From assembly GCF_036351135.1 (NCBI RefSeq), contig NZ_JAZBON010000022.1, positions 7,351-71,350 of the forward strand: 64,000 nt of DNA, written 5' to 3'. This document shows, one piece after another, positions 21,186-45,098 of the stretch. The stretch is from Erythrobacter sp. GTDB taxonomy: Bacteria; Pseudomonadota; Alphaproteobacteria; Sphingomonadales; Sphingomonadaceae. Made by a program: the position numbers and the translations under genes. The first letter of the stretch is position 1. Every line of letters begins with the position of its first letter. The notes below the pieces were generated by a model. It ran no database searches. It saw nothing but the letters and a program-made list of their open reading frames with translations, and was not told the origin of the DNA.

Positions 21186-21221
21186 GCTATGCTACCATCG
21201 ATGCGCAAGATGGGGGGACAT

Positions 21222-25309: not shown

Positions 25310-25333
25310 GCAGGCGGGAACATGCCGCCCGCC

Positions 25334-26270: not shown

Positions 26271-28061
26271 ATGTTTGCCGGCGTAGCGTCGACGCTCGGC
26301 ATTGCGGCAGGCGCGCTTGTTCCTGCGGCAGCGGCTCGCGCTCAGGATCAGGTTCCGCCACAACTTACCCCGCCGCCGCGCACTCAGCTGACCCCGCCCG
26401 AACAACGGCGCGACGAACGCCCCACCACGCTGACGATCGACGGCGATCTCGAGCGTACGCCCTGCGTGCTCGACCGGGCGGAATATGCCAATATTACGCT
26501 GACCTTAAGCGGGGTCGATTTCGCCGGGCTCGAACGCGTGCCGGGCCTTTCGCTGGACGAGGCGTATGACGGGTATCTCGGGCGCGAACTGCCGCTTGCC
26601 GTCATGTGCGACATTCGCGCGCAGGCAAACGCCATTCTGCGCTCTCAAGGCTATCTGGCGACGGTCGAGATACCGGAACAGAACCTGAGCGACGGCGTAG
26701 CGGATTTTCGCGTCGTTTTCGGCCGTCTTGCGGCGCTGCGCGTGCGCGGAGATGCCGGGCCTTCCGAGGCGCTGGTCGCCTCCTATCTGGAAAAACTGAC
26801 CGAGGCCGACGTCTTCAACACGCAGGATGCCGAACGCTACCTGCTGCTCGCCGACGATCTGCCCGGAACCGACGTGCGCCTTTCTCTGCGCCCGGCGGCG
26901 GACGGCGAGCCGGGTGATCTGCTGGGCGAAATCGCGGTGGTGCGCAGGCGCGGCCAGGTCGATTTCAACATTCAGAATTTCGGTTCGGAAACGCTCGGAC
27001 CCTTCGGCGGATTGTTGCGCGGTGAGCTGTTCGACCTCACCGGCCTGGGCGATCGCACCACGCTCGCAGTTTTCAGCACAGTCGAGTTTTCCGAACAGCA
27101 GACTTACCAGCTTGGCCACGATTTCGCGGTCGGCAGCGAGGGGCTACGCCTGGGCGGACAGGTGACCTATAGCGAGACCGACCCCGACCTCGATCTCGAT
27201 GGCTTCGACCTTAAGTCCGAGACGGTGCTCGCAACCGTGTTCGCATCCTACCCGCTCGAGCGTTCGCGCCGCACATCGACAGTTCTGAGCGGCGGGTTCG
27301 ATCTGGTCGATCAGAACGTCGAGTTGAACGACTTCACGCTTTCGCGCGACCGGGTGCGCACGCTGTACGCGCGGATCGACACCAACTGGACCGATTTTGC
27401 GAGCATTCGCAATATCGGCGGTTACAACGCTTTCGAGCCGCGCTGGCGCGCGCGTTTGGCGACCGAGTTGCGTCAGGGGATCGACGTGTTCTCCGCAAGC
27501 GAGGATTGTCGCGCAGATCCACTTGCCTGCACCGCGGATGGCGCCGCTCCGCCAAGCCGGATCGAGGGCGATCCGACGCCGCTGCTCGCGCGGTTCAGCG
27601 CCGGTTTCGAATATCGACCGACGCCGCTCTTTACCGTCGCGCTCGATGCGAGCGCGCAGATCGCCGCCGATCCGCTGCCGGCCTTCGAAGAATATGCAGG
27701 CGGCAGTTTCTCGATCGGCCGCGGTTACGATCCCGGTTCGGCGCTGGGCGACGATGGCGTCGGCGCCGCCTTCGAGCTGCGTTACGGCTCGCTCGCGCCC
27801 GCGGCGGTGGATGCCGTCGCGGTTCAACCTTACGCCTTCACCGATGTCGTCGTGACCTGGAATCAGGATCCCAGCCGTGTTGCCGCCAATCCCGACGAGC
27901 TTTGGTCCGTCGGTGGAGGAATGCGCGCGATCTGGGGCTCTAACCTCCAGGCCGACGCCTTCGTGGCGGTCCCGCTCGAAAGGCCGGACCTGGCCCTCGA
28001 GAAGCCCGACGTGCGCTTCATGTTCTCGATCACCGCTCGCCTCGTACCCTGGAGATATTGA
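26271..28061 (+). CDS. TpsB outer-membrane transporter (ShlB/FhaC/HecB family)
   Basis: The start at 26271 gives the signal peptide [25 protein letters not shown]. This is followed by a Pro-rich linker, a POTRA-like region ([16 protein letters not shown]...[32 protein letters not shown]) and then a beta-barrel ([25 protein letters not shown]...). C-terminal aromatic residues ...LVPWRY. Confidence 0.85.
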
Positions 28062-28062
28062 T

Positions 28063-31000
28063 ATGGGTCGCTCTAACACCAATCGCTCGAAATTCCTGAT
28101 CGGCTGCGGCTCCGCCGCGCTGGCGATGGGATTGCTGATTGCGTCCGAGCGGGCACAGGCACAGGCGTTCAACGCCAATGCCGAAAATGGCGGATTGGGC
28201 ACCTATCAGCGGGTGATCGTCGATGGGACCAGCGAGATCATCGAGATCGAGACCCCGACCGCGGTGATCGACTGGACGCCGTTGGAGGATGCGGGCGGCA
28301 ACGCTCTCGATTTCCTTCCGACCGGCGCCACCGCAACGTTCCAGAACAGCAGCGACATCAACCCCGGCTCGAATTTCGCGGTGCTCAACCGCATCATGCC
28401 GTCATCCAATGGCGACATAGTCGTGATGGACGGGACGGTCATTTCGCAGATCGTCGACAGCGCCGGGGAGTCGAGCGGTCCTGGCGGCACGGTGGCGTTC
28501 TATTCGCCCACCGGTCTCATCATCGGCGACAATGCCGTGTTCGATGTCGGCAACCTGATCCTGACGACGCTCGACGTTTCCAACGCCAGTTTTGAGGCGT
28601 TCACCCAGAGCGGCGGTCAGCTGCAACTGGCGCGCGACAGCGATTTCCCTGGTGCTAACATCCGGCTCGATTTCGGCGCGCAAATCACCGCCACTGCCGA
28701 GAACTCCTACCTCGCGGTCACGGCTGCCGATATCCGGGTTTTCGGAACGACCGACGTCAACGGCAGTCAGGCGTTCGTCGCTGGCGACGAGATCAACCTG
28801 TCCTTTTCCAACGGACTGTTCGACATCCAAGTCGTCACCGGCACGGAAGCGACCAATGCTATCAGTCTGTCGGGCGACGTTGGCGGTCCGTCGAGCACGG
28901 GCGCGGGCGACAATCACATCATCTACGCCGTAGCGCGCGCCGCGGCCGATCCGATTTCGCTATTGTTTGGCGGCAATCTCGGCTTCGAACCGGCAGCCAG
29001 CGCCGGCATCGTCAACGGCGAGATCATCCTGTCGGCCAACTTCGACGTGGACGGAAGAACAGTTGCAGGAGCGTCGACCACGGAGGGTATCGACGCGGTG
29101 TTCGACAACCGGTTGGCGACCACCGATACGAACGGCGAGATTGCTATCGGCTCGCTGATCGCGACCAGTTCGTTGACCGCTGTTGCCAATGATCAAGTGT
29201 TCATCGAAGCGATCGAGAGCACGATTGATGTGACGGGCGACTTGATCTTGCACGGCACCACTTTCGCGGTCGCTTCCGCTTCTGACGGTGGCGACCTTGC
29301 CATCTCTGGAGACGTGCTGGTTTCCTCGCTCGACCTAGGCGAAGTGTCGGGCGGTTTTGACGGGATCGGCGAAGCCGCCGCGACCGGCGGTACTGCGGTC
29401 CTGAGCGGCAGTTTCGGCGGGATCGTCACGATCGACGGCGACGTTCGCGTGACGGCGGAAGCGATCGCGGGTCTCGATACCGAAAGCCAGGCAACCGGAT
29501 CGGCCACGGGCGGCAACGCCTCAATAAATGCGGGCGAAGGCGGCGAAGTGACCATCGACGGCTTTGCCGAGGTGCTGGCTTCGGCTGAGGCCTCTTCGTT
29601 TGCCGAAACGGTGCTGGAAGGCAACGAGTTTCGCGGTGGTGCGGCGCGAGTGAATATTGAATTCGACGGGGACGTGACCGTCGATGGTAATCTCACCGTG
29701 GCTGCGGATGCCTTCGGTGCGGATGGCGACGACTTCAACCCTTCGACCGGATCGCCCGCTTTCGGTGGCACCGCATTTGTCACGATGGATAGCGCGCCTG
29801 ATTCTCTCAATGTCGGGGGCGATGTTCTAGTGGCCGCTGATGCCATTGCCGGAAGCTCGAACGAGGCAGATCAGGGCGCGTTAGCAGATGCGGGCAACGC
29901 GCAGATATTCACTCGCCGCAACGACACCATCGATATCACCGGCAATGTCAGTCTGTCCGCGAGGGCCGAGGGCGGTTCTAATGCGAACGGTTTGGGCGGC
30001 GATGCCCTGGGCGGGATCGCCGGCATGTTAATTAATGAGGGTGGCAATGCGACCATCGGCGGCGACTTCGCGGCCGACGGATCGGCCAGGGCCGGCGATG
30101 GTGGAGCCGGGGGCGGCGACGCGTTCGCCGGGATTGCCGGAGCGCGGGTTACGATCGGTTCGATCGACATTGCCGGTTCGGGCAATGCCAATGCGAGCGG
30201 CGCTGGCGGAAATGCCGGTTTGGGTACCGATGGCGGGCGCGGCGAGGGCGGCAATGCTTTTTTCCAGGCCGATGGAACGGCGATGGAGACCGCATCGCTC
30301 GCGATCGGCAGCGACGCCATCCTCAACGCCGATGGCATTGGCGGCGCCGGCGGCTTCGGCAGCGGCGCGGGCGGTGACGGGGTGGGCGGCCAGTTCGACA
30401 CGCCCAACCAGGCGGATGTCGAAACCACGCCCAATAGCGGCGCCTACCTGCTAGCCGGCGGCGACAACGGTTCGATAAGCGTTGGCGGCGCAACCTCTTT
30501 AAGCGCCATCGGCTTCGGCGGCGCCGGCGGGGGATCGATATCCTTCGACACCGGCGGTGCCGGCGGGTCGGGCACAGGTGGGGCGGCACAGGCGGGGCTT
30601 GCCTTCCTCGATGGCGACGGTTCGGTGGGTGCCGGCACGGCGTCATTCGGAAACGTTAATGTCGATTCGCAAGGCGTTGGGGGGATCGGTGGCGATGGGG
30701 AAGAAGGCGACGGCGTCGGCGGCGATGGGACTGGCGGTTTGGCCATCTTCTCTGGCACCGCCGGCACAATAACCGCCGCCGACGTTACTTTGTTCGGCAC
30801 TGCCGTGGGCGGCGACGGCGGTACGGGCGGAACTGCCGATGGCGGCGGCGCGGGCATTCTCGGTTCGGCGCAGGGCTCGGTCACGATCGACAGTCTTTCA
30901 GCGCAGGCGATCGCGCGCGGCGGCAACGCTAGCGATGGCGGCGCTGATGCAAATGGCGGCGTTGCTTTCGGCGGGGAAGCGGTTCTCGATGGGAGCGAGA

Positions 31001-34000
31001 TCGATATCGTCATTCTCGGCGATGCGAGTTTGCTCACGGACACGTTTGGCGGCTCGGCCATAAGTGGGGACGGCGGTGATGCGGTCGGCGGCCAATCCTC
31101 CACTATTATCCAGGACCGCGAGGCAGCGTTCGGTTCGATCGACATCGGGGGCGATGTATTTCTTCAAACTTCGGGTTTCGGCGGCTCGACCGTCAACGGC
31201 CTCACCGGCGGTTCGGGTTTTGGCGGACGGGGGCGTGTCCTTGTCGACAACAGTACCTTGTTTGCGGATCGGATATTCATGTCTGCTCGGGGAACGGGCG
31301 GTACCGGAGCACAAAGTGGCGGCGCTGGGAATGCTGGCGAACTGATAGTCAATGTGGCGCTCGGCACTGTCGATGTAACGGCACTTTCGATGAGCGCTAT
31401 CGGTACTGGCGGCGATGCTTCCGAAGCGGGCGGAACTGGCGGCGTCGGCCGTGGAGGTCTTGCACAAGTTTTCGTCGGGGGATCTGAAACGGAAAGTGCC
31501 AGCCTTCTCGTCGATACTGACCTGCTCCTCCGAGCAGGCGGCTCGGGCGGCAACGGCGGACCGGGCGGCGCGGGCGGCGATGGTTTTGGCGGTCGACCAG
31601 ATGTCGAAGAAGAGGGCGGCGCGTTCATCCTTGTCGGCCGCGACAATGCTTCGCTCATTGTAGGCGGGGATATCAGCGCCAACTTCGGGGGCTTCGGGGG
31701 CGCGGGAGGCGATGGCCTCGCCTCGGGCGGGAGTGGCGGCGATGGCGGTAACGCTACGGGTGGCGAGGGCCTGCTCTCGATCCAAGCCCTAGGGTTCGGC
31801 GGAGCTTCGATCGACAACGGTTCGATAAGCGCAGCAAACATATTCATCTTCGATAATCCCATCGGCGGCGATGGCGGGGCGGCCGGGAGAAGCACTGATG
31901 TTCAGGGCAATGGCGGTAATGCGGCCTCGGGTTCGGCTATGATAAGTCTCGATGGCGGATCGCTCACCGCGACCGGGCGCATCACCGCCCAAACGAACCC
32001 TGACGGTGGCGATGGCGAGGTGGGTGGATCGGCGATAGCGGGCGACGCGAGCTTCTCCGCCGTCAATGCCGATGTTCAGAGTGACACGCTCGAGATACTA
32101 GCCTTTGCCTTCGCGCGTTTCGGAACCGTTGCTGTCGGAGATACCGATGGGGGTTCGGCCAGTCTGTTCGTGGATGGCGGCAACATCGATGTGAATTCTG
32201 TTTTCTTGAATGCGAATGCTGACTCAGGTGCAGATCTCTCGACTGCTGCTGGAGGGATCGCCGATGCGGGTCGTGCGAATTTCGATATTTTCGGCGATGC
32301 AATCGCTGATATCGGCACCGCTTTCATTTTGGCTAACGGCTTTTCTTCTGACGGGGGAAGCGCCTCGGGCGGGGTGGTGAATGTCAATATCGGTGATGTC
32401 GAATTCACGGGCGCGCCTCAAGTAAACGTCGGCACCCTGGTTGTGAGCGCCGAAGCGACCGGTGGCTTTGACAGCGGCCCGGCAAACAGCGTCGGCCGTT
32501 TCACAATCGATATCGACGACGGCGAACTCGCCGTTACCAATTTCACTGGTACAGCGCTCGGTAGCGACGATTTCGGTGAGCGTGGTTCCTCGAATATCTC
32601 GGCGACCGGCGGCGATTTCCTCGTCAGCGGGACTTTCGACGTCGATGTTCGCAACAGTTTCCAGATCGAAACCGCCAACGGCAACATCATCGGCGGTCCT
32701 TCGCTGTCAGCACCCACCGCGCAGATCACGATCGATTCAGGTAGAACGATCGTCATAGACGGCGATAACGATGCGGCGATCGGCTTCGGCGGGGCGTCGC
32801 TCTCGCTTACTTCCGAGGATATCGCGATCAACTTTGGCGCGCGTATCGGCGCGCCGGTCATGAATTTCGCTTCGATCGCGAACGATGGCCTTCCCACCAT
32901 CCTCGGCGGCGATCCTTCTCTCGTCGAAGGCGAATATGCGCTGACACAGGACGAGATCGCACGGCTCGAGGTCGGTCGGTTCAACTTCTTCGCGCCGACG
33001 ATTACCGAAGCAGGCGCCGACGAGGCCGACCTTCTCATTCGCGATGCGACGATCGTGGGATCGGGCGACGATGGTGCGTTCAGCGTCAACATCTTCGGTT
33101 CGGGCGGTATCGCCCGGGTCGAAGGGCAGGTCGACTACATCGACGCTCTGAGCACAGACAGCCTGTCTTTCTCGAATTTCGAGCGAATCGAAGTGGTAAC
33201 GCCGGGACGCGTTACGATCACCGACAGCGATATTCTGCCATCCGGTTCGCTTACCCTTGAGGCGGACAATGTTTGGGTCGCCGATGCGAGCTTGATCGCA
33301 CAGCTTCGGGCCGATCCTGATTTTGCCGGACGGAACGAGGCTCTCGCCACGGCTGGCGGGGGCGGTCCCGGTTCTGTCGTCGCAGATGAGGTTACGATAC
33401 GGATCGCAGATCAACTTCTTGTAGCCAATGAGGGCGAAGTCGGAGAAACTCGCGGAATTCTTGTCGGATCCGGCGGCTTGTCGATCTCCGGCCCCGAAGA
33501 CAGCTTTTCCCCCTCGACGTTGGATGTCTTCGCCTATGGCGCGCGGCTCGATGGGTCGGGTGAGTTCGTCGATGGCGAAACGTTCTTCAACGAAGTTGAA
33601 TTCTTCGGCGGCGGGTCCGAGCCGGCCAGCTATACGGACGAGTCTTCGTTCAACGATTGCCTCATCAGTTCAAGCGATTGCGGCACCATAATCAACCCAA
33701 CACCCACGCCAACGCCAACGCCAACGCCAACGCCAACGCCAACGCCAACGCCGACGCCCACACCGGCGCCGACGCCTACGCCTGCGCCCACTCCGACACC
33801 TACGCCTGCGCCCACTCCAACGCCGACGCCAACGCCGACGCCGACGCCGACGCCTACGCCTACGCCTACGCCCACACCGACACCGACACCGACGCCTACG
33901 CCGACACCTACACCAACGCCCACACCGACCCCGACGCCTACACCGACACCGACACCGACGCCTACGCCTACGCCCACGCCCACTCCGACGCCAACACCGA

Positions 34001-34350
34001 CGCCTACGCCTACACCGACGCCGACGCCGACGCCGGCACCGCCTCCGATCTCGGGGCCACCGCCACCACCGCCGCCGCCCGAGCTGCCGCCGGAAGTGCA
34101 GGTTGTGTTCGAGCAGATTACCAATGAAGAGGTCGTCGAAGCCGCTGTTTCGTCGGCGGTTCCGGTTCCGATCAGCGGGGAGGAGAGCAACGAGGAATTC
34201 GGCCTCGACTTCCCTGCTTTCGTCGAAAGCGATGAGATCGACGAGGAAACGGATGTCGGCGATGCCGTCGCCTCGGGCGGCGATTCCTCTCTCTACCGAC
34301 CGCAGACCGGCACCGTCGAAGTCGGAGAGGAGGCATCCGATGACCAGTGA
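28063..34350 (+). CDS. TpsA-type giant exoprotein (filamentous-haemagglutinin-type TPS domain, Gly-rich beta-helix-like repeats, Thr-Pro linker, acidic tail)
   Basis: The track ORF begins at 27877 inside tpsB. The ATG at 28063, 1 nt after the tpsB stop, gives [36 protein letters not shown]. The TPS-domain pattern is [16 protein letters not shown]...ATFQNSS...[24 protein letters not shown]...[28 protein letters not shown]. 2095 aa in total. Confidence 0.85.
33697..34047 (+). repeat. Coding (Thr/Ala-Pro)n dipeptide repeat, about 57 units, followed by a poly-Pro stretch (to 34095)
   Basis: Reading frame CCN-ACN/GCN repeated from 33697 (cca aca ccc acg cca acg ...) to 34047. The codons are a mixture of cca/ccg/cct/ccc and acg/aca/act/acc. 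The longest perfect hexamer run is (ccaacg)x6 near 33709-33744. Confidence 0.95.
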
Positions 34351-37300
34351 AGTCGTGAGGAGGCTGTTTGCCCTATGCACCGCGGCGGCGGTCGGGCTCA
34401 CTGCGATGTGGTCCGCCCCCGGCCCGGCGCAGTCCGCGAAGCAGCAGTCGATCAGCCTGCGCGATACCTTCCCGATTGGCTCCAACGGCCTTTGCGAAGC
34501 GCAGATCCAGGCGCCCGAAGAAGGCGCGGGCCTGTTCGATCGGCGCTACGACATCCTGTGCCGCGACGCGGCAGCGGCGATCGGAACGATGTGGATCGTA
34601 CGCGGCCGGATGGCCGACAGCGCCGCAGAACGCTTCGTCGGAACCGGCGCCTCGTGCACCGAACGCGAGGACGCGGAGATGCCGCCGGGGCTGGCGGACG
34701 GCAAGCGTCTGATTTGCGCACGGCCGGGCAGCGTCATCCGCACCGAATTGCTGGTCGGCGAACGCGGCAACCGGACGTTCGCCGCCACCGGCCTGTCGGC
34801 CTATTCGCGCGCGCTCGAGCTGGGCGTCGCCTCGCTTGCGACCGACCGGGTGGTTCCCGGCGAGGTCGACATTCCGCTTACGCAGACCACCGATTCCCTC
34901 GCCTTCGTTCGTCAGCAGGCGACCTCGATTACCGCAGACCAGTCCCTTGCCGAGGCCTACCGCCGCTCCAATGCGGGCGAATTCGCAGAGGCGGCGGAAT
35001 TCTTCGCTGCCAGCGCCGATGCTCTCGATGGTGCAAGCGAGACCGAAGCGCGCCTCAACGAGGGGCTGCTGCAATCCAATCTTGGCAACTACGCCGAGGC
35101 GCGTCGCCGGTTCGACGCGGCCCGCGCGACATCTTCGGCAAGCCCGGTGCTGGCACGCCTACAGCGCAATTACGAGGCGATCGACGCGCTCAATCAGTCC
35201 GAGCCGGAGCGCGCGCTCGCCTTGCTCGCCCAGCCGCTTGCCGCGGATTTCGGGGAGACTTCCGCGATCCGCAACCTGCAGATCGGCTCGGCGCTTGCTC
35301 GGCGGCTCGCCGCGGAAAGCGAGAGCGCGACCGATCCGGCGTTGTCGCAAGCGCTCACGCCGCTCGAACGTGCGCAATTGCTCGATGGGCAGGCTGACTA
35401 CCTGGGTGCCACGGCGCTAAGGCTGAGTGGGCGCAACCAAGAGGCCGCCGAGCGACTGATGCGCGCCAATACGACGCTTGCCGAAGTGCGCGGCGGACGG
35501 GTTGTCTCGATCCTTTGGCTGCGCGCCCAGGTCCTGAGCGAACTTGCCGAACTCTCCGAATTGTCGGGCGATCTCGCGCGGGCCGAAGCCTTGCACGGCC
35601 AGGGCATCGCGTTGCTGGCCGACGCCTATCCCGATTCGCCCGCCTTCTACAGCGCCAATGCGCAACTTGCGGGCTTTTTCGCGCGCAACAATCGGAGGGG
35701 TGAAGCACTCGATCTCTACCGCGATATCGTTGCGCGGGCGGAAGGACGACCGGCGACAGTCCTACGCACCTACCTCGCCGATTATTTCGACCTTCTCCTG
35801 GGCGACGCAGCGAGCGCCGATGCGGCGGGCGATCTGTTCGCGGCGAGCCAATTGCTGCTTCGCCCGGGCCTTGCCCAAACGCAGGCCGTGCTCGCGCGTG
35901 AGCTTTCGGGTGGCAGCGACGAGGCGTCCCTGCTGTTCCGGCGCAGCGTCAATCTGGGCCGCGCGGTTGAACGCATGCGTGCCTCGATCGTCGAGGTCGA
36001 AGGGCAGGCGGACGTCAATCCGCAGGCCGCCGCGGCGCTCATCGAACGCCGCGAGAGGCTCGATGCGCTTGTCGAGCGACAGGCCGAGGTGCTGCAGAAG
36101 CTTGCGGAATATCCGCGTTTCCGCGCGGTCTCCGGCGGCGCGTTGAGCCTGGAAGGGATGCAGGCCATTCTCGGCGGCGATGAAGCCTATGTGAAGATGG
36201 TCGCGCTCGATGGCGATGTTTACATGGTCTACATCACGCCAAACGATGCGTTGGCCTACCGTGTGGATGCGACGCCAGAACAGCTCGAAGGCATCGTTCA
36301 GACCCTGCGCGAAAGCATCGCCATCGCCGATGGTGGGCAAGTCACCACCTTCCCGTTCGATCTGGCGACCTCGCGTGAGCTTTATGTGCGGCTGTTCGAA
36401 CCAATCGCCGACCGCTTGCCGACCCATCGCCATATCATCTTCGAACCCGACGGCGCTATGCTCAAGCTGCCGATTAATCTGCTGGTGACGAACGATGAGA
36501 GCGTCGAGCGATACGAGCAGCGCATCGCGCAGCCCGAGGCGGACGAATACGATTTCCGTGGTGTCGCGTGGCTCGGCCGCGCCTCGCAAATCAGCACGGC
36601 AGTCGCGCCAACGGCGTTCCGCGACGTGCGCGCCGCACCGCCGAGCGACGCGATCAAGGCCTATCTTGGCCTCGGAGAAAACACGCCGATCGGCGACGGA
36701 CCCGTTGGCACCGCGCGGACACGTTCGGCGCTCGCAGGGGGCGAGAACTGCATCTGGTCACCGGCGATCTGGTCGAACCCGATCCAAGCGGATGAGCTTT
36801 ACGACGCCGCATCCCGTTTCGGCGGAGCAGGGTCGGACCGTGCGGACGTATTGACGCAAGACGCCTTCACCGACGCGCGGATCGAGGAACTCGGCAATCT
36901 GAGCGAATATCGCATCCTCCATTTCGCGACGCACGGTCTCGTCACCGCGCCTGAACCCGAATGTCCGCCGCGCCCGGCGCTGCTGACCTCGTTCGGCGAC
37001 GGGGATTCGGACGGCCTTTTGAGCTTTTCCGAGATTTTCGGTCTGCGGCTCGATGCCGACCTCGTCATCCTTTCGGCCTGCGATACCGCCGGGAGCGCAA
37101 CGGTAGGCGCGACGCTGGAGGCCGGCATTACCTCGGGAGGCGACTTTGCGCTCGACGGGCTGGTGCGCGCCTTTGTCGGCGCCGGGGGACGCACGGTGCT
37201 GGCGAGCCATTGGCCGGTCCCCGACGATTTCGATGCCACCAAGCGACTGATCGGCGGACTCTTCGACGAGGGCGACAGCGAAACTGCTGCCGCGTTGCAG

Positions 37301-37402
37301 CGCTCGCAACTGGCGCTGATGGACGATGCGGAAACTTCGCATCCTTTCTATTGGTCGGCATTTGCGATCGTGGGTGACGGTTCGGTAAAGGTCACGCGCT
37401 AG
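34340..37402 (+). CDS. Exported TPR-CHAT domain protein (caspase-like Cys protease fold)
   Basis: The start at 34340 (GGAGAGGAGG RBS) overlaps the tpsA stop by 11 nt. Signal peptide [32 protein letters not shown], in which RRLFA is weakly Tat-like. The central part is helical and TPR-like. The C-terminal CHAT domain has its His (ILHFATHG, about 36920-36937) and Cys ([11 protein letters not shown], Cys codon 37079-37081) intact. Confidence 0.85.
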
Positions 37403-37548
37403 GGTACAGGCGCTCGCGCGTGAAAGGCGTTCGCGTTGTTGCGAGGGGGACAGGTCACTAGCCCGCCCTTGCGCTGGAACGGCGGGTTGGCTTTGGCTTG
37501 AGCGGTGGAGCTTAGCTCGGATGCCAAGCCGATGAGGGGGGATACAAA

Positions 37549-39690
37549 GTGGTCGACGACGCGACTGTGCCGCCCGTCGCGGCGCGGGAAAGCGATAGCG
37601 AAGAGCGCCGCCGCAAGCGCGCGAGCGTGTCCGCACGCCTGATCCGCGGAGTGCGCGAGGCTGGCGCGCCGCAGCTGGCCGCGACCGTTTTCTTCGTGCT
37701 CTTCTCGATTTTCATCGCGCGCTACAGCTGGGTCCTGCCCTTCAGCGCCGAACCTACGCCGATTACCAACGATGCCGAGCGCGCGCTCTATGATACGCGC
37801 GCCTATCTTTCCGCGGACTTGGTCGAGCAGGACGATCGTATCATCCTCGTCGTCTACGACGATCAGGCGCTCATCAATCTGGAGAAGCGATCGCCACTGC
37901 CGCGCGATGCCCTATCCGAGGCACTGCGCAACCTAGATGGCATGGGCGCGAAGGCGATCGGCATCGATATCCTGTTCGATCAACCGCAATCCGAAGATCC
38001 CGAGCTGGTCGAGACCTTGCGGGCGATGCAGACGCCGACCTCGGTCGCCTATGCTACGGTGGCCACCAACGAGGCGGACATTTCCTATGAGCAGCAGCTC
38101 TATCTCGACGAGTTCATGGCCGCGATCGAGGAAGGCGACACTGATGTGCGGCGCGCAAGCATTCGCCTTGACGACGAGTTCGGGGCGACCCGGGTCTGGC
38201 CCGACATCGTCCCCGAGCTGCCGCCGCTCCTTGGTCGGGCGATGCTGGCCGATGCCGGTGGGCCCTACGAAGCCTTTGAAGGCTACGAGGGCGCCATCGA
38301 ATATCGCCGGGCCTTGCGGGCTGGTCTCAACGAAGGCGAGGCGGATGCGCGTGCCGATGTCGAGGAACCGCTCTTCCAGACCCTTTCCATCGAGCTGTTT
38401 CTCGATCTCGATCCCGCGGTGGCCGCGTTCGTCGCGCAGCAGATCGAGGGGCGCTATGTCCTCATCGGCGGCGACATTCTCGACTATGACCGGGTGGTGA
38501 CCCCGTTCACGCCCTGGACCGGTTTCGAGCCTTCGGGACTTTCGGTGCACGGCGAGATCATCGCCCAGATGCTCGACGATTCCCCCTTGGTTCAAATACC
38601 AACTTATGCGCTCTGGTTCATGGCGATCCTCGTCGTGGCAAGCGCGGTCGCGGTCGCGCTGCTCGAATGGCCGGCACGAAAGCTCGTGCCCGTGCTGCTT
38701 ACGCTCGGCATTCTCTATCTCGGCTTGCCCTTCCTCCTCCATTTCTACGATGTCGACACCTACGGCTTGCCCGCGGTCGGCTGGCTTGTCGGATGGATCA
38801 TCTCCTTCACCGTCGTCACAGCCGCGGCGCGCGCGGCCGGCGCGGCCAAACGAAGTTTCGCGCAAGGGGCGCTCGGCAAGTACATTCCCGCCGACATCGC
38901 CAATGCCATCATGGAAGAACCCGAACTGCTTTCGCTGGGCGGTGAGAAGCGCAACATCTACGTGCTCTTCAGCGACCTCGAAGGCTTCACCAAGATGAGC
39001 CACGCCATCCCGCCGGAAATGGTCGCCAAACTGCTCAACCGCTATCTGGAAATGCTGAGCAAAGTGGTGCTCGATCATGGCGGAGTGATCGACAAATATG
39101 TCGGCGATGCGGTCGTCGCCTTCTGGGGGGCGCCGATCGCGCGGCCCGACGATGCGCAGCGCGCGGCCAAGGCGGGATACGCGATGTGGCAAGCGGGCGA
39201 GGCGTTTCGCGCGGAGGTCGCCGCGATGGATCCCGACCTGCCGCCGATCGGCAAGACCCGCGTGGGGCTGCATTACGGCGAAGCGGTGGTCGGCAATTTC
39301 GGCGGCGAAACGCGCATCCAATACACCGCTCTCGGCGACAGCATGAACACGGCCGCCCGGCTCGAGGCGGCGAACAAGCCGCTTGGCTCGAACGTCACGG
39401 CGAGCCGCGAATTCATCGAACAGTCGAACCCTGAAGACTGGGTGCCGATGGGTCGGATCGTGTTGCGTGGACGGGCGCGACCGGTCGATATCTATCAGCC
39501 TCGGCCCGACTTGTCGGCCGAGGATCGGCGCAAACTCGAAGAGGCCGTTCAGGTTTCGGATACGAACGCCGTGCTAGCCGCGCGGCTTGTCGACGAAGTC
39601 GCTGCTGGCAATTCGGGCGATTTGGCGCTAGAAAATTACAGCAATCGAATACGACATTTGAACGATGGGGGTGCATATGTTCTCGGTTAG
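37549..39690 (+). CDS. CHASE2 sensor fused to class III adenylate/guanylate cyclase
   Basis: 713 aa, GTG start with GAGGGGGG RBS. CHASE2-like region RIILVVYDDQALINLEKRSPLPR..AIGIDILFDQP, then a three-helix TM block. Cyclase motifs: IYVLFSDLEGFTKMS, DKYVGDAVVAFWGAP, VGLHYGEAVVGNFGG, YTALGDSMNTAARLE. Confidence 0.9.
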   Translation: MVDDATVPPVAARESDSEERRRKRASVSARLIRGVREAGAPQLAATVFFVLFSIFIARYSWVLPFSAEPTPITNDAERALYDTRAYLSADLVEQDDRIILVVYDDQALINLEKRSPLPRDALSEALRNLDGMGAKAIGIDILFDQPQSEDPELVETLRAMQTPTSVAYATVATNEADISYEQQLYLDEFMAAIEEGDTDVRRASIRLDDEFGATRVWPDIVPELPPLLGRAMLADAGGPYEAFEGYEGAIEYRRALRAGLNEGEADARADVEEPLFQTLSIELFLDLDPAVAAFVAQQIEGRYVLIGGDILDYDRVVTPFTPWTGFEPSGLSVHGEIIAQMLDDSPLVQIPTYALWFMAILVVASAVAVALLEWPARKLVPVLLTLGILYLGLPFLLHFYDVDTYGLPAVGWLVGWIISFTVVTAAARAAGAAKRSFAQGALGKYIPADIANAIMEEPELLSLGGEKRNIYVLFSDLEGFTKMSHAIPPEMVAKLLNRYLEMLSKVVLDHGGVIDKYVGDAVVAFWGAPIARPDDAQRAAKAGYAMWQAGEAFRAEVAAMDPDLPPIGKTRVGLHYGEAVVGNFGGETRIQYTALGDSMNTAARLEAANKPLGSNVTASREFIEQSNPEDWVPMGRIVLRGRARPVDIYQPRPDLSAEDRRKLEEAVQVSDTNAVLAARLVDEVAAGNSGDLALENYSNRIRHLNDGGAYVLG

Positions 39691-40429
39691 GAAAAGGGCC
39701 CGCCTGGCGGGTGTCGCCCTGGCGGGCATCATGCTTGCGGGAAGTGCGGCGGCGAATGCCGGCGTGGTGGTCAAGTCGTCCGGTCCGTCTGCGGACCAAT
39801 ATCCGGTGGGAGAGGAAGTCGCCGACAGCTCGACGATCTCGCTGCGCGCGGGCGACAAGATTACCGTGCTGACCGATCGCGGCACGAAGGTCATGCAGGG
39901 ACCGGGCACGTTTCGCGTCGGCGAACGGCCGACCCGAACGCGCGCCCGGCTTACCAACATGACGCGGCGCAACGCGGCGCGCGGCGCCCGCACCGGGGCC
40001 GTGCGCGGCTCGGGCGGCAGCAGCGGCCCGGATACCATTCCCAATCTCTGGCTGGTCGATGTGACGAGGGGCGGGCCGACCTGCCTTTACAATCTCGACC
40101 GCGTCCGTTTGTGGCGCCCGGTCTCGGAAGAGGCGCAGACCTATCGCATCTCGCAGGTGGGTACCAACGAGGCGCTCGACGTGGAATTCGTCGGGACCGA
40201 AAGCGTGCGCGCGCTCGATCCGGCTGGGCTTCAGCTGATGAACGGTCAGAGCTACACGATCACCGGTCCCGCTTCCGAAGGCGGCTCGATGCCCAATGTC
40301 GAGATCAGGGTAATCGAGATGACCGAGGCCTTCCGTCAACCGGCTGAGCTTGCAAGGGCGCTGGTCGCCAACGGTTGCATGTCACAGGTCGCGGTCCTCG
40401 GAAACACCGCCGAAGCCGAGGCGTCGTAG
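39677..40429 (+). CDS. Secreted protein of unknown function, co-transcribed with the CHASE2 cyclase
   Basis: The start at 39677 overlaps the cyclase stop by 14 nt. Signal peptide MFSVRKRARLAGVALAGIMLAGSAAANA. The N-terminal part (ISLRAGDKITVLTDRGTKVMQGPGTFRV) only weakly recalls FecR-type strands. An Arg/Gly-rich linker is followed by a second beta-rich half. Confidence 0.65.
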   Translation: MFSVRKRARLAGVALAGIMLAGSAAANAGVVVKSSGPSADQYPVGEEVADSSTISLRAGDKITVLTDRGTKVMQGPGTFRVGERPTRTRARLTNMTRRNAARGARTGAVRGSGGSSGPDTIPNLWLVDVTRGGPTCLYNLDRVRLWRPVSEEAQTYRISQVGTNEALDVEFVGTESVRALDPAGLQLMNGQSYTITGPASEGGSMPNVEIRVIEMTEAFRQPAELARALVANGCMSQVAVLGNTAEAEAS

Positions 40430-40508
40430 GCGGACTCGCGGGGGCATCGCCCTTCGCCTTTCGGGCCGCATCTTGAAACCGGCGCCGACGCCGCGCATCT
40501 TCGGCTGC

Positions 40509-40871
40509 ATGGCAAGTGAAGCCCGCGGCAACGTAACGATCTGGTTCGACGGCGGCTGTCCGCTGTGCCGGCGCGAGATCGCTCTGATGCGACGCCTCGA
40601 CCAGCGCGGCGCGCTGCGCTTCATCGATGTGGCGCAGGACGAGGCGGCGGGTTGTCCGATCGACCGCGCGGACCTGCTCGCACGCTTTCACGCCCAAGAA
40701 AATGGCCGCGTGTTGAGCGGGGCAGCGGCCTTCGCCGCGATGTGGCGATCGATCCCGCTGCTGCGCCCGCTCGGCCTTTTGGCACGCAATCGCGCGGTGC
40801 TGGCGAGTCTCGAGCGCACCTATAGAGCGTTCCTGCGCGTCCGCCCGCTGCTTCAGCGCGCAATGCGATAG
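40509..40871 (+). CDS. DCC-family thiol-disulfide oxidoreductase (DUF393)
   Basis: The internal start gives 120 aa: VTIWFDGGCPLCRREIALMRRLD..LRFIDV, which is the DxxCxxC signature of this family. Confidence 0.75.
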   Translation: MASEARGNVTIWFDGGCPLCRREIALMRRLDQRGALRFIDVAQDEAAGCPIDRADLLARFHAQENGRVLSGAAAFAAMWRSIPLLRPLGLLARNRAVLASLERTYRAFLRVRPLLQRAMR

Positions 40872-40944
40872 GCAAAAATCGCGCGGACAAACCGTACCCC
40901 GATCGGTTATCGCTGCAGCACCATGGACAGCGAGAGAAGCGGAA

Positions 40945-42108
40945 ATGAGCAATTTCGGCAGCATGCAGAACGCGATCTACAATGCCGGTCTGCAGGGAAT
41001 TCTGCCAGACTACCCGGTGGATTTCGCCACGCTGGAACAGCGCGCGCACGAGGCGCTGGGTCCGATGATGACGAATTACGTTGCGGGCGGCTGCGGCGAC
41101 GAGCACACGCAGGACGTCAATGCCAGCGCCTTTCATCACTGGGGCATGATCCCGCGCATGATGGTAGATTGCTCCGAACGCGACCTGTCGATCGAGCTGT
41201 TCGGCATGGATCTGCCGACGCCTTTGTTTATGGCTCCGATCGGCCTCAACGGCGAAGCGACGCAGGATAGGCATGGCGATATGGCCGCCGCGCGGGCCTC
41301 GGCTGAAACCGGGGTGCCGTTCAGCGTGTCCACCCTCTCCAACGACCCGCTCGAAGACGTCTTCGGCGCCTGTGGCAACACGCCCGCCTTCTTCCAGCTC
41401 TACACGCCGCGCAACCGCGAACTCGCGCAGAGTCTTATCTCCCGCGCCGAGCAGTCGGGCGCCAAGGCGATCATGGTAACGCTCGACACCTGGCTGACCG
41501 GTTGGCGCCCGCGCGATCTCAACGCCAGCAACTTCCCACAGCTGCGCGGCAAGGTTTTGCAGAACTATTTCTCCGATCCGGTTTTCCGCTCGCTGCTGGA
41601 AAAATCGCCCGAAGGCGATCCGAAAGCGGCGATCATGCTGTTCGCCGCGATCTTCGGACAGGTGCTGACCTGGGAGGACATGGCCTGGTTCAAAGACGCG
41701 ACCGACCTGCCGATTGTCCTCAAAGGCATCTGCCACCCGGAAGATGTGCGCAAGGCGATCGATCACGGCGCGGATGCGATCTATTGCTCGAACCACGGCG
41801 GACGGCAGGCGAATGGCGGGATCGCAACCATCGATCTGCTCGCCGATGTCTTCGCTGCGGCGGGCGATGTCCCCGTCCTGTTCGACAGCGGCGTGCGCTC
41901 GGGCACCGATGCGGTGAAGGCGCTGGCCATGGGCGCGCGGGCGGTGGGGGTGGGGCGGCCCTATACCTACGGACTGGCGATCGGCGGGGCGGCAGGCGCG
42001 GCCTGGGTCCTACGCTCGATCCTCGCCGAGGCCGACCTGCTGATGGCGGTCAACGGCTATCCTGATCTGACCGCGTTGCGCGAGGCCGGGGTGCAGCGTA
42101 CCGACTAA
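40945..42108 (+). CDS. FMN-dependent alpha-hydroxy-acid oxidising enzyme (lactate 2-monooxygenase/LldD-like)
   Basis: 387 aa. PTPLFMAPIG, the TIM-barrel pattern, and VLKGI..PEDVRKAIDHGADAIYCSNHGGRQ. Confidence 0.85.
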   Translation: MSNFGSMQNAIYNAGLQGILPDYPVDFATLEQRAHEALGPMMTNYVAGGCGDEHTQDVNASAFHHWGMIPRMMVDCSERDLSIELFGMDLPTPLFMAPIGLNGEATQDRHGDMAAARASAETGVPFSVSTLSNDPLEDVFGACGNTPAFFQLYTPRNRELAQSLISRAEQSGAKAIMVTLDTWLTGWRPRDLNASNFPQLRGKVLQNYFSDPVFRSLLEKSPEGDPKAAIMLFAAIFGQVLTWEDMAWFKDATDLPIVLKGICHPEDVRKAIDHGADAIYCSNHGGRQANGGIATIDLLADVFAAAGDVPVLFDSGVRSGTDAVKALAMGARAVGVGRPYTYGLAIGGAAGAAWVLRSILAEADLLMAVNGYPDLTALREAGVQRTD

Positions 42109-42433: not shown

Positions 42434-43885
42434 TCATGGCGCCGCTTTGGCGACGGTCACCAGCTTGGTCTCAGTGTAGCCGAGATAGCCCTCCATCCCG
42501 CTTTCCGAACCGAACCCGCTATCGCCGACTCCGCCGAAGGGCGTTTCGGGCGAACCGACCGCGAAGTGATTGATCGCGACCATTCCGGCGCGCAGTGACT
42601 TGCCGAGATAATGGCTCTCATCGAGGCTCGAGGTGAAGGCATAGGCGGCGAGACCATAACGCAGCGAATTGGCGATCTTCACCGCCTCGGCGATGTCGTC
42701 ATAGGGGACGATGCCAGCAACCGGGCCAAACGGCTCTTCGGTCATGAGTTTGCTGTTCGCGGCGGGAGAGGCGATCACGGTCGGCTCGAAGAAGTGGCCT
42801 GGACGATCGATCCGCGAGCCACCGCTGACGATTTCTCCAGCACCATCGCCCATCGCGTTCATCAACTCTTCCATCGCCGCGACGCGCCCGCCATGGGCGA
42901 GCGGCCCCATTTCGACACTGTCGTCGCTGCTCGCATCGCCGATCTTGAGCTTCTGTGAGCGCGCCGCGAATTCCTCGACGAAGCGATCGTAGATGCCGCG
43001 CGCAACGAGGAAACGCGTGGGCGAGACGCAGACCTGTCCGGCATTGCGAAACTTGGTCGCCGCGCAGGCTGCCACGGTCCGCTCAAATTCGGCGCTTTCG
43101 CCGATCACCACCGGCGCATGGCCGCCCAGCTCCGGGGTGAAGCGCTTCAGCCCCCGTGCTGCCAAAACGCCGAGCTGCTTGCCGATGGCGGTCGATCCGG
43201 TGAAGCTGACCTTGCGGGTGACGGGCGAGGCGATGAGATGCTCGGAAATCATCGCCGGATCGCCATATACGAGGTTCACCACTCCATCCGGCAGCCCCGC
43301 ATCAGTGAAGCATTGAGCCAGCATCTGTGCGGTCGCAGGCGTGGTTTCGGCGGGCTTGAGGATAGCGCTGCAACCCGCGGCAAGGGCGCCGGCGATCTTC
43401 TTCGCAGGCAGGTTGATCGGGAAATTCCACGGCGTCAGCAGCACGGCCGGGCCGACCGGTTCCTGCGTCACGCGTTGTTCCAGCAGATTGTGACTGCGTA
43501 CCGGCACCAGCCGCCCGCCCTGCCGCTTCGCTTCCTCGGCGAGGAAGTCGATCAGGTCGGCGGCGCCCATCGTTTCGCCCAGGGCCTGCGCATGCGGCTT
43601 GCCCATTTCAAGCGTCATTACCCGGGCGATGGTCTCGGCCCGCTCGCGCAGAAGCTCGGCGGCGGCGCGGATGATGCGATAGCGCTCGATCGCCGGGGTG
43701 TTCGACCATCTGGGGAAGGCTTCATCGGCTGCGGCCAGCGCTGCATCGAGCTGTTCCTTCGACGCCTTGGGCGCCCGGCCGATCTCCTGCTCGGTAGCCG
43801 GATTGACTATCGGCATTGCCCCATCGCCGCCTTCTCCCATCCATTCGCCCCCGATCAACATCTTCACTTGTGGGTAGGCGGTCAT
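42434..43885 (-). CDS. NAD(P)-dependent aldehyde dehydrogenase
   Basis: The track ORF 42434-44143 is over-extended. The start at 43885 (AAGGAG RBS) gives MTAYPQVKMLIGGEW. Motifs: LTPWNFP, FTGSTAIGK, ELGGHAPV, NAGQVCVSPTR, EEPFGPV. Confidence 0.9.
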   Translation of the reverse strand: MTAYPQVKMLIGGEWMGEGGDGAMPIVNPATEQEIGRAPKASKEQLDAALAAADEAFPRWSNTPAIERYRIIRAAAELLRERAETIARVMTLEMGKPHAQALGETMGAADLIDFLAEEAKRQGGRLVPVRSHNLLEQRVTQEPVGPAVLLTPWNFPINLPAKKIAGALAAGCSAILKPAETTPATAQMLAQCFTDAGLPDGVVNLVYGDPAMISEHLIASPVTRKVSFTGSTAIGKQLGVLAARGLKRFTPELGGHAPVVIGESAEFERTVAACAATKFRNAGQVCVSPTRFLVARGIYDRFVEEFAARSQKLKIGDASSDDSVEMGPLAHGGRVAAMEELMNAMGDGAGEIVSGGSRIDRPGHFFEPTVIASPAANSKLMTEEPFGPVAGIVPYDDIAEAVKIANSLRYGLAAYAFTSSLDESHYLGKSLRAGMVAINHFAVGSPETPFGGVGDSGFGSESGMEGYLGYTETKLVTVAKAAP

Positions 43886-44009
43886 ACGGGAACTCCTTGA
43901 TTGAGGGGGTGAGCGAACACGCAATGTGGCGGGCAATGCCCTTCGTTTCAATTGATACATTGTTGCGCGCAGCCTATCGCGGCGTTCAAGCGAAGTGCAG
44001 GAGCGAATC

Positions 44010-45098
44010 ATGCTGGTGGGCGTCCCCAAAGAAATCAAGAACCACGAATATCGCGTCGGTCTGACGCCCGAAGCGGCGCGCGAATATGTTTTCAACGGAC
44101 ACGAGGTCGTCGTAGAAAGCGGCGCGGGATTGGGCATTACCAAGACCGATGACGATTACCGCGCTGTCGGCGCGCGGATCGTCGACAGCGCCGAGGAAGT
44201 GTTCGCCAGTGCCGACATGATCGTCAAGGTCAAGGAGCCGCAGCCGGGCGAATGGGTGCAGCTGCGCGAGGGGCAGATCCTCTTCACCTATCTCCACCTC
44301 GCCCCCGATCCGGATCAGGCGCGCGGCCTGATGGAGAGCGGGGTTTCCGCGGTCGCCTACGAAACCGTCACCGATGCAGATGGTGGCCTGCCACTGCTCG
44401 CGCCGATGAGCGAGGTCGCCGGGCGTCTGTCGATCGAGGCTAGCGCGCAGGCGAGCCACAAGGTGAACGGCGGGCGCGGCATCCTGATGGGCGGGGTGCC
44501 CGGTGTGCTTCCGGCCAAGGTCGTCGTAATCGGCGGCGGCGTGGTCGGGACGCAGGCGGCGCGCATGGCGACGGGGCTGGGCGCCAATGTGGAGATTCTC
44601 GACCGTTCGCTGCCGCGCATCCGCGAGCTCGACGATATGTTCCAGGGGCGGGTGACGACGCGCTATTCCAACGCGCAGACGATCGAATACGCCATCACCG
44701 ATGCCGATGTCGTGGTCGGCGCCGTGCTGATCCCCGGCAAGAACGCGCCGAAGCTGGTGACGCGCCAGATGCTGGGCCTGATGCGCCACCGTGCTGTATT
44801 GGTCGATGTCGCGATCGACCAGGGCGGGTGCTTCGAAACCTCCAAGCCGACGACGCACGAAGACCCGACCTATCTCGTCGACGACGTCATCCACTATTGC
44901 GTCGCCAACATGCCAGGTGCGGTGCCGCATACGTCGAGCTATGCGCTCAACAACGCGACCCTGCCCTATGGACTGGCGCTGGCGGAGCACGGCATCGCCG
45001 CGTGCGAGCGCGACATTCACCTCGCCCCCGGCCTCAACGTGCACAAGGGGCGCATCGTCAACGAAGCGGTCGCCGAAAGCCTCGGTTTCGCGGCCTGA
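44010..45098 (+). CDS. ald: Alanine dehydrogenase
   Basis: The start at 44010 gives MLVGVPKEIKNHEYRVGLTPEAAREYV. Also LVKVKEP and the GGGVVGTQAARMATGLGA Rossmann motif. About 362 aa. Confidence 0.9.
   Translation: MLVGVPKEIKNHEYRVGLTPEAAREYVFNGHEVVVESGAGLGITKTDDDYRAVGARIVDSAEEVFASADMIVKVKEPQPGEWVQLREGQILFTYLHLAPDPDQARGLMESGVSAVAYETVTDADGGLPLLAPMSEVAGRLSIEASAQASHKVNGGRGILMGGVPGVLPAKVVVIGGGVVGTQAARMATGLGANVEILDRSLPRIRELDDMFQGRVTTRYSNAQTIEYAITDADVVVGAVLIPGKNAPKLVTRQMLGLMRHRAVLVDVAIDQGGCFETSKPTTHEDPTYLVDDVIHYCVANMPGAVPHTSSYALNNATLPYGLALAEHGIAACERDIHLAPGLNVHKGRIVNEAVAESLGFAA

Follow-up and report, generated by a model that had tools for sequence, protein, structure and literature searches.

A candidate periplasmic TPR-CHAT protease encoded with a two-partner secretion pair in Erythrobacter and its frequent CHASE2 neighbours

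Background

Regulated processing of the TpsA exoproteins of two-partner secretion (TPS) systems in the periplasm is already known. In this work, we analysed a locus in which such processing may be carried out by a protein encoded in the TPS operon itself. In a stretch of 64,000 nt of DNA from Erythrobacter sp. (NCBI RefSeq assembly GCF_036351135.1, contig NZ_JAZBON010000022.1, positions 7,351 to 71,350 of the forward strand), here called the window, the genes for a TpsB-type outer-membrane transporter and a TpsA exoprotein are followed by a gene for an exported protein with tetratricopeptide repeats (TPR) and a caspase-fold CHAT domain (the CHAT protein), and then by genes for a CHASE2 membrane receptor with a class III nucleotide cyclase domain and for a small protein with a signal peptide.

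Several described systems resemble this locus in part. LapG belongs to another protease family, with a non-caspase fold; it is not known to be encoded beside cdrAB, its recognition site is a di-alanine, and cyclic di-GMP exerts inside-out control over it through LapD. In Pseudomonas aeruginosa, this periplasmic cysteine protease acts on CdrA, a TpsA adhesin exported by the TpsB protein CdrB, sets its retention at the surface, and is tied to a second-messenger system via an inner-membrane receptor (PMC4694147). The FhaB prodomain of Bordetella, in which a proline-rich region precedes a conserved extreme C-terminus, is retained in the periplasm, where it undergoes regulated degradation (PMC4542190); the conserved C-terminus governs this proteolysis, and information was proposed to cross the outer membrane along TpsA. 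This prodomain is ~1200 aa long and is degraded by the general or unlinked proteases DegP, CtpA and SphB1 (bioRxiv 10.1101/2021.05.21.445233), with no CHAT protease or CHASE2 receptor involved.

The combination of TPR and CHAT is known from proteins of a different kind. DdvA, an anti-sigma factor of Myxococcus xanthus (PDB 8ROT/8RW5; PMC11506125), is a periplasmic TPR-CHAT protein with a conserved His-Cys dyad, which is membrane-anchored, fused to a cytoplasmic zinc anti-sigma domain, has no TPS partner and regulates an island of cyclic-oligonucleotide-based antiphage signalling system (CBASS) and CRISPR genes; it was proposed to be a signal-activated protease in envelope signalling (PMC11506125). 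Csx29 of the type III-E Craspase and separase share the TPR-plus-CHAT fold and substrate-specific, allosterically gated cleavage; both are proteins of the cytoplasm, with RNA or securin as activator and with unrelated substrates. Finally, in the Burkholderia BiofilmReg operons, a small exported periplasmic FecR protein stands beside a CHASE2 membrane sensor, with a histidine kinase and a response regulator as output and with no TPS or CHAT genes (PMC5192318).

Full-text literature searches found no work linking CHAT with two-partner secretion, filamentous hemagglutinins or CHASE2. An original prediction, made from the letters of the window without database searches, had proposed that the exported TPR-CHAT protein processes the C-terminus of TpsA. 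Here, we combined family-wide comparison of the locus with structure prediction. As a result, we report a caspase-fold candidate protease built into a TPS operon, together with a TpsA whose short conserved C-terminal motif is the candidate substrate. An in-operon CHAT version of TpsA processing would be new, and there is a fair chance that it represents a distinct envelope signalling system.

Results and discussion

Domain structure and predicted active site of the CHAT protein

The C-terminal part of the CHAT protein matches the complete PF12770 (CHAT) model in Pfam (aa 676-1013 aligned to profile positions 2-289 of 289; E=1e-48; score 166.7 bits, cut-off 24), and its predicted catalytic residues, His865 in ILHFATHG and Cys914 in ILSACDTAG, are invariant in 81 orthologs and in 87/87 diverse full-length family sequences. 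Ahead of this domain, orthologs carry precomputed Pfam matches to the TPR families PF13424 and PF13176, and a profile of the CHAT orthologs matched kinesin-light-chain TPRs (E=2e-7) among PDB sequences, where it retrieved TPR proteins only and neither DdvA nor Csx29. Databases name the family merely "CHAT domain-containing protein"; the highest-ranking protein matches come from Erythrobacter and Qipengyuania, with identity up to 77%.

The AlphaFold2 (AF2) model built from 81 orthologs (predicted local distance difference test, pLDDT, 76; predicted template modelling score, pTM, 0.68) consists of four parts: disordered aa 1-35 and the beta-rich (aa 38-168), helical-repeat (aa 186-610) and alpha/beta (aa 615-1020) parts. 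In Foldseek searches, the whole model matched DdvA (E=4e-10), Csx29 (E=2e-9) and separase (E=7e-8) with probability 1.0. The alignments span TPR plus CHAT of DdvA and Csx29, the TPR region aligns to many TPR proteins, and the identity to Csx29 and separase in the structural alignments is ~10-14%. The original prediction of a TPR-CHAT protein with these His and Cys motifs is thus borne out by the Pfam match, the invariant dyad and the predicted helices; the N-terminus and both motifs that it quoted are present in the translation of 34340-37402, and the comparison with caspase and separase folds that it proposed gave these whole-chain matches.

The N-terminal beta-rich domain (aa 38-168) has no family match. 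It is present throughout the exported CHAT family, with a near-invariant start, and may serve to recognise the TpsA tail. In the family alignment, the non-catalytic cysteines C52, C74, C106, C126 and C875 are kept in 87/87 sequences and C804 in 86/87; these six conserved residues would fit disulfide bonds in the oxidising periplasm.

Export of the CHAT protein

The N-terminus of the window protein contains R7-R8, a hydrophobic core of 16 aa and then A-Q-S. Among 120 orthologs, the letters of the N-termini are divergent and their form is common: a hydrophobic core of ~15 residues stands between 1-3 basic residues and an A-x-Q/S/A site, straight after which near-invariant sequence starts. A simple hydropathy heuristic, which looks for a basic n-region and then a hydrophobic stretch, was passed by 113/116 orthologs and by 81/85 diverse full-length representatives, whose identity to the window protein is 28-55%. 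The export signal noticed originally is confirmed as a family-wide pattern. Its reading of RRLFA as a weak twin-arginine translocation (Tat) motif fails. RR is present in 4/116 orthologs, RR-x-hydrophobic-hydrophobic in 9/85 representatives, and most sequences have a single K/R or KK; because the twin arginine is absent from most orthologs, the signal is assigned to Sec and not to Tat. A lipobox-like site was found in 25/85 representatives. The best reading of these N-termini is a Sec-exported protein, soluble here, lipid-anchored in some relatives and predicted to face the periplasm. The remark that an extracytoplasmic CHAT protein is unusual was overstated, given that the exported family comprises 650 clusters and that a structure of the periplasmic TPR-CHAT protein DdvA exists (PMC11506125).

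The upstream genes encode a TPS pair

The tpsB frame is open from TTG 26130, but translation probably starts at ATG 26271, from where the product begins with a signal peptide; this product matches the Pfam families ShlB (34.3 bits, cut-off 22.7) and POTRA_2 (32.5 bits, cut-off 24). The 2095-aa protein encoded next had been labelled TpsA. Neither the complete protein nor its first 398 aa (at E<=10) has a match in Pfam or NCBIfam, and a 29-sequence profile of its N-terminus produced just a chance match (E=0.09) among PDB sequences, yet the label was confirmed by fold and by homologs. For aa 1-380, AF2 gave a model with pLDDT 91 and pTM 0.88, and its top 23 Foldseek PDB matches are all TPS secretion domains, from EtpA, HxuA, HMW1, FhaB and HpmA (best E=3e-10). 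PF05860 is found in homologs that share 38-57% identity with the N-terminus and bear the name filamentous hemagglutinin family protein. The modelled fold and these homologs confirm the assignment of the protein as TpsA, which forms a bona fide TPS pair with TpsB. The predicted layout of TpsA comprises a signal peptide (~aa 1-35), the TPS secretion domain (~36-330), a Gly/Ala/Asp-rich middle whose length differs among orthologs, and a conserved C-terminal region.

Association of the CHAT gene with TPS genes

A scan of Sphingomonadales with one genome per species yielded 80 loci, 47-77% identical, and wherever the upstream sequence is long enough, the order is TpsB-TpsA-CHAT; in the examined loci of Erythrobacteraceae, the cassette is syntenic and core-like. 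An exhaustive search of 1.8 billion cluster representatives returned 650 at E<=1e-30, many of them full-length (1000-1100 aa, 28-35% identity), and distant loci were obtained by contig look-up for several representatives together with a scan of metagenome contigs. A profile of distant family members used in a further large protein search gave few matches and no useful taxonomy. Among the 96 family loci with at least 200 nt upstream of CHAT, a large same-strand open reading frame (ORF) ends at the CHAT start in 88, and 59 of these 88 junctions fall within -8 to +7 nt, well beyond chance and with TGAnATG or ATGA as the commonest forms, start-codon choices being approximate in this automated survey. 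ATGA overlaps are seen too in relatives at 28-35% identity. A ShlB/POTRA TpsB is present in the distant loci with a visible upstream region (L107, L144), and the TPS-CHAT partnership is found down to ~25% identity. These observations support the CHAT protein as a dedicated genomic partner of the TPS pair.

In the window, the CHAT ATG at 34340 opens 8 nt ahead of the tpsA stop codon TGA (34348-34350), which gives an overlap of 11 nt. The translational coupling regarded as almost certain in the original prediction is common in the family but not obligatory: in three loci (L085, L097 and L131), the same five genes are reordered as CHAT, CHASE2 cyclase, small protein, TpsB and TpsA.

In a relative at 30% identity (L081/L082, 6387-16385), the pair of a giant ORF and CHAT lies directly upstream of a complete type VI secretion cluster (ImpA_N, VipA/B, Hcp, TssE/F/G and ClpV); this is a single case and may be coincidental.

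A conserved tail motif at the TpsA C-terminus

Alignment of the TpsA C-termini demonstrates a common plan, in which a conserved domain ending in NDC.IN.G.C is followed by a low-complexity spacer, a tail motif and a variable acidic end. The consensus of the tail motif is FG.DFP....PLISEDPLLD[DE]PV[AT]SGGD.SLY. Its variants occur in 84/88 of the same-strand ORFs upstream of CHAT family genes, and the main variant is essentially confined to true partners when compared with 1972 control ORFs (>=300 aa, all frames) from the same loci. More distant forms are ...P.VT[SG]G.GNE[ED][IL]W... in L081, L084, L085 and L088 and ...GNPALW... in L144; in L096, L099, L102, L105, L111, L114 and L158 the tail stands at the very C-terminus, as ...GNEALW(Q)-COOH or ...PN[IV]xxxDY-COOH. 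The motif survives replacement of the preceding domain, of the Cys loop and of the linker, as well as the permutation of gene order in L085, whose TpsA retains both Cys loop and tail motif.

The Thr-Pro and poly-Pro linker between the Cys loop and the tail is of another character. In tpsA of the window, 55 tandem copies of ACGCCG encode (Thr-Pro)n. The orthologs have runs of PP, TP, DP, EP or Gly-Ser-Thr in this place, or almost no linker, the Pro-rich run being absent or replaced in some, and the distance from the Cys loop to the tail varies from 40 to 272 aa (median 58). This pattern suggests repeat slippage in a tolerant spacer. A fixed-length ruler spanning the periplasm was considered for the Pro-rich linker and rejected, since both length and composition are hypervariable. 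The long Thr-Pro/poly-Pro/acidic C-terminus had been proposed originally as the target of the CHAT protein, and the conserved motif downstream of the linker had been missed; by these alignments it is the tail motif, and not the Pro-rich run, that travels with the CHAT gene and is the likely target.

The NDC.IN.G.C loop is kept in ~2/3 of the orthologs and in distant relatives. The TpsA proteins of a Porphyrobacter-like clade (at least 17 loci) have no cysteines whatever and another repeat domain ahead of the tail. In this clade (L017, L018, L023-L043 and others), the Cys-loop domain is swapped for tandem repeats of ~80 aa, YGNANPALTFTVGG.GLVNGDQL.G.L..., which are found ~1 kb upstream of the CHAT start and resemble MBG-type repeats.

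Signalling genes downstream of CHAT

The recurrent link with CHASE2, missed in the original prediction, suggests a signalling role on top of maturation. The tally of downstream genes covered 85 family loci, each with 2.5 kb or more of sequence behind CHAT, and left Rce1-like membrane proteins unscored: a CHASE2 protein is adjacent in 55/85 loci, and a Ser/Thr kinase, sometimes together with PP2C, in 4/85. The CHASE2 cyclase and the 254-aa protein stand behind CHAT in all close relatives, and also in L144 and in L107, where the same four-gene order is kept at ~25% identity. In other lineages, a Ser/Thr kinase, PP2C or Rce1-like membrane protein is located directly behind CHAT. Since no signalling gene was detected beside CHAT in 26/85 loci, where such genes may sit elsewhere in the genome, TpsB-TpsA-CHAT is the minimal constant unit, to which a signalling enzyme of the membrane is often added.

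The 254-aa protein accompanies the CHASE2 cyclase in every locus that has this cyclase, permuted orders included, and may be a periplasmic partner of the CHASE2 domain. It has no Pfam match, and identification as a FecR domain was considered but is not supported, BLASTP against the FecR ORF of the window giving E=0.05. The cyclase domain (aa 450-617 of the product of 37549-39690) scores much better with the PADLOC model PycC (E=1e-33, 115 bits) than with Guanylate_cyc (56 bits). Its product could be cyclic AMP, cyclic GMP or a pyrimidine cyclic nucleotide; no Pycsar-type effector was seen near the cyclase.

Comparison with described systems

The cassette is not a LapG/LapD system, which it resembles in logic alone, nor is it a DdvA-type anti-sigma factor, to which the likeness is one of fold. 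In contrast to LapG and CdrA, the TPR-CHAT protein is encoded in the operon, next to a CHASE2 class III cyclase, and the motif is a different one. Pfam found no LapD-like GGDEF, EAL or HAMP domains beside CHAT, and the tail motif has no TAAG-like site. Unlike LapD, the CHASE2 cyclase neighbour suggests outside-in signalling. With FhaB, the likeness consists in a Pro-rich stretch followed by a conserved C-terminus, and no sequence similarity was found between the FhaB and TpsA tails. In comparison with DdvA, the CHAT protein of the window is predicted to be soluble and has an additional N-terminal Cys-rich beta domain. Two pairs of a small exported protein and a CHASE2 protein, of the kind known from BiofilmReg, are present in the window, namely the FecR protein 20943-21665 near a CHASE2-PP2C protein and the 254-aa protein with the CHASE2 cyclase, the latter differing from BiofilmReg in that no FecR domain is detectable.

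Interpretation of the cassette

On balance, and with moderate confidence, we favour the reading that the CHAT protein is a dedicated periplasmic protease that would cleave TpsA at its tail. TpsB would thread TpsA through the outer membrane, N-terminus first, and the last ~230 residues of TpsA (Cys loop, Pro spacer and acidic tail motif) would stay periplasmic, like the FhaB prodomain. The TPR and/or the N-terminal domain of the CHAT protein would then dock on this tail, and His865/Cys914 would cleave in or near it, possibly after a small-small-Asp/Asn sequence (GG[DN]). Such cleavage would decide how the surface filament is matured, retained, released or turned over, and here, as in many other genomes, the adjacent CHASE2 cyclase with its small periplasmic partner would probably read or control it, which would couple the state of the surface protein to a cyclic-nucleotide signal. 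The original proposal that the CHAT protein acts on the TpsA C-terminus therefore stands in part: the export signal, the invariant dyad and the TPS partnership speak for it, and within that C-terminus the likely target is the tail motif and not the Pro-rich run. If this reading is true, the cassette would reveal, for the first time, a substrate and a physiological role of a bacterial CHAT protease outside the cytoplasm; it would also offer a new, self-contained genetic model for maturation or release of type Vb secretion substrates and, through the CHASE2-cyclase neighbour, an experimental handle on a widespread sensor domain; Erythrobacter and Qipengyuania include cultured isolates with genomes among the loci found.

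Several points weigh against this reading. The periplasmic position of the TpsA tail is postulated by analogy with FhaB alone. Cleavage after GG[DN] is a guess from the specificity of clan CD, whose enzymes cut after Asn or Asp. In the AF2 model, pLDDT is below 50 at aa 916-936, in the loops directly past Cys914. The Cys loop is missing in at least 17 orthologs, those of the Porphyrobacter-like clade, which keep the tail motif; a "stopper" role of the loop therefore cannot be general, and the loop was rejected as a universal stopper. The 26 loci with no detected signalling neighbour mean that the signalling extension is not universal, or that its genes are located elsewhere. DdvA keeps the dyad and its protease activity was never demonstrated (PMC11506125), so that an invariant dyad does not prove catalysis.

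This last point is also the starting point of an alternative that we regard as quite unlikely, namely that the TPR-CHAT protein is a non-catalytic adaptor or chaperone, which holds the TpsA tail or plugs or regulates TpsB, with the caspase fold used as a binding module. The start/stop overlap, which suggests tight stoichiometric co-expression, is consistent with such a role, and TPR domains often bind short C-terminal peptides. However, His865, Cys914 and their flanking motifs are kept in 87/87 sequences at 28-55% identity, which argues for selection on catalysis, and pseudo-proteases usually lose the nucleophile in some lineages. If the protein is an enzyme, it might instead join what it cuts: as a sortase-like transpeptidase, it would cut the tail as a sorting signal and transfer the new TpsA C-terminus to peptidoglycan, a lipoprotein, lipopolysaccharide or another acceptor in the envelope, so that the filament would be covalently anchored. 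The motif is indeed near the C-terminus, in some subfamilies exactly there (...GNEALW-COOH, ...PNIxxxDY-COOH), and its small residues in a row, with a dispensable tail behind them, are reminiscent of a sorting signal; moreover, clan CD includes transamidases, and its members PorU, of the type IX secretion system, and GPI8 act on C-terminal signals. All of this is reasoning from analogy; the cassette yielded no acceptor gene, and we know of no CHAT-family transpeptidase. We consider this role improbable.

The signalling neighbours allow a different substrate. As a signalling protease or sensor, the CHAT protein would have its target or partner in the CHASE2 receptor or the small periplasmic protein, or else in a kinase or PP2C phosphatase in the lineages that have these, with TpsA as an antenna or a co-regulated product; it would be a signal-activated switch, DdvA-like, that alters the cyclic-nucleotide output. 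The frequency of the CHASE2 cyclase and small protein beside CHAT (55/85), their survival through the permutations in L085, L097 and L131, the four-gene order kept in L107, and the kinase, PP2C or Rce1-like protein in their place in other lineages all agree with this proposal, as do DdvA as the best structural match, a caspase-family domain reported to be fused to CHASE2 in a cyanobacterium (PMC2853523), and the fact that the ligand or input of CHASE2 is unidentified (PMC5192318). On the other hand, the constant partner is the TPS pair, whereas 26/85 loci have no detectable signalling neighbour, and the deep conservation of the tail motif would be difficult to account for without contact to TpsA. 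We consider both the alternative targets and the DdvA-like switch possible but unlikely; they overlap with the extended form of our favoured reading instead of excluding it. In the most far-reaching reading, the cassette would be a trans-envelope device, where surface contact, strain or finished secretion exposes the TpsA tail, and the CHAT cleavage or the freed peptide is the CHASE2 input; we advance it only tentatively, as we do the corresponding outputs, which would be the cyclase and a PP2C partner-switching phosphatase here and Ser/Thr kinases elsewhere, surface events thereby turning into cyclic-nucleotide or phosphorylation signals. Toxin delivery or defence, with TpsA as a polymorphic toxin similar to those of contact-dependent inhibition and CHAT as its releasing peptidase or an antiphage effector, is disfavoured and appears very improbable. 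CHAT domains do occur in defence systems, those of Craspase, CBASS and gasdermin operons among them (PMC11506125), and the cyclase domain matches PADLOC PycC models, but this match is consistent with the shared homology of class III cyclases, the CHAT protein is exported and has no PADLOC match (E<=1e-3), the TpsA C-termini are conserved between species with no VENN-type junction, toxin domain or immunity gene present, and the locus is syntenic and core-like in Erythrobacteraceae.

Features of the locus and its surroundings

The coordinates of the features are collected in Table 1. No paralog of any cassette gene was found elsewhere in the 64-kb window, and a promoter/terminator scan of 25700-41000 gave counts at or below shuffle expectation and was uninformative.

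Table 1. Features of the TPS-CHAT locus (positions in the window; AF2, AlphaFold2; TRF, Tandem Repeats Finder)
Feature	Position	Strand	Basis or remark
TpsB-type outer-membrane transporter	26271..28061	+	ShlB and POTRA_2; stop 1 nt ahead of the TpsA ATG at 28063
TpsA exoprotein, 2095 aa	28063..34350 (frame open from 27877)	+	Fold, homologs, TpsB neighbour
Cys-x6-Cys loop of TpsA, C1866 to C1873	33658..33681	+	Sole two Cys of the mature 2060-aa TpsA
Thr-Pro/poly-Pro low-complexity linker of TpsA, aa 1877-2010	33691..34092	+	TRF: hexamer ACGCCG x55 at 33706-34035
Conserved TpsA tail motif, aa 2044-2078, then variable acidic end	34192..34296	+	Candidate CHAT recognition/cleavage site
Shine-Dalgarno-like GGAGAGGAGG	34324..34333	+	Read from sequence; inside the end of tpsA, spacer of 6 nt to the CHAT ATG at 34340
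Exported TPR-CHAT protein, 1020 aa	34340..37402	+	Pfam, ortholog alignments, AF2/Foldseek
Predicted Sec-type signal peptide, aa 1-32	34340..34435	+	Likely cut near AQS/A; form of N-terminus conserved in family
N-terminal beta-rich domain, aa 38-168	34451..34843	+	AF2 strands; four invariant Cys (C52, C74, C106, C126)
TPR-like helical repeats, aa 186-610	34895..36169	+	AF2 helices, Foldseek, TPR profile match
CHAT caspase-fold domain, aa 615-1020	36182..37399	+	PF12770, Foldseek; holds conserved C804 and C875
Predicted catalytic residues His865 and Cys914	36932-36934; 37079-37081	+	Dyad in HFATHG and LSACDT motifs
CHASE2-class III nucleotide cyclase membrane receptor	37549..39690	+	CHASE2 E=2e-24, Guanylate_cyc E=4e-15 (Pfam)
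254-aa signal-peptide protein, no known family	39665..40429	+	Overlaps the cyclase stop

The window DNA is high-GC. A second CHASE2 protein, with a SpoIIE/PP2C domain, is encoded on the minus strand (22285-24351) in an operon divergent from tpsB. This operon (22285-25822) also holds genes for a metallo-beta-lactamase (MBL)-fold protein (24326-25309) and a STAS anti-sigma-antagonist-like protein (25334-25822), and it resembles a partner-switching module whose input would come through a periplasmic CHASE2 domain; it appears to be kept upstream of tpsB in the closest relatives only (L006). The ORF 24266-25873 on the plus strand (535 aa, no homologs) is a shadow frame antisense to the MBL and STAS genes and was rejected as a gene. 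Beyond this operon, the gene for the FecR-domain protein (20943-21665, plus strand, Pfam E=3e-9) overlaps by 4 nt with the gene of an OmpA-like protein (21662-22270, plus strand); FecR-CHASE2 pairing is known from the Burkholderia operons (PMC5192318). In the distant locus L083, an OmpA gene is located behind the CHAT, PP2C and kinase genes. Downstream of the cassette, the window contains housekeeping-type genes for an FMN-dependent dehydrogenase (40945-42108, plus strand) and an aldehyde dehydrogenase (42434-44143, minus strand), which are syntenic in the closest relatives only.

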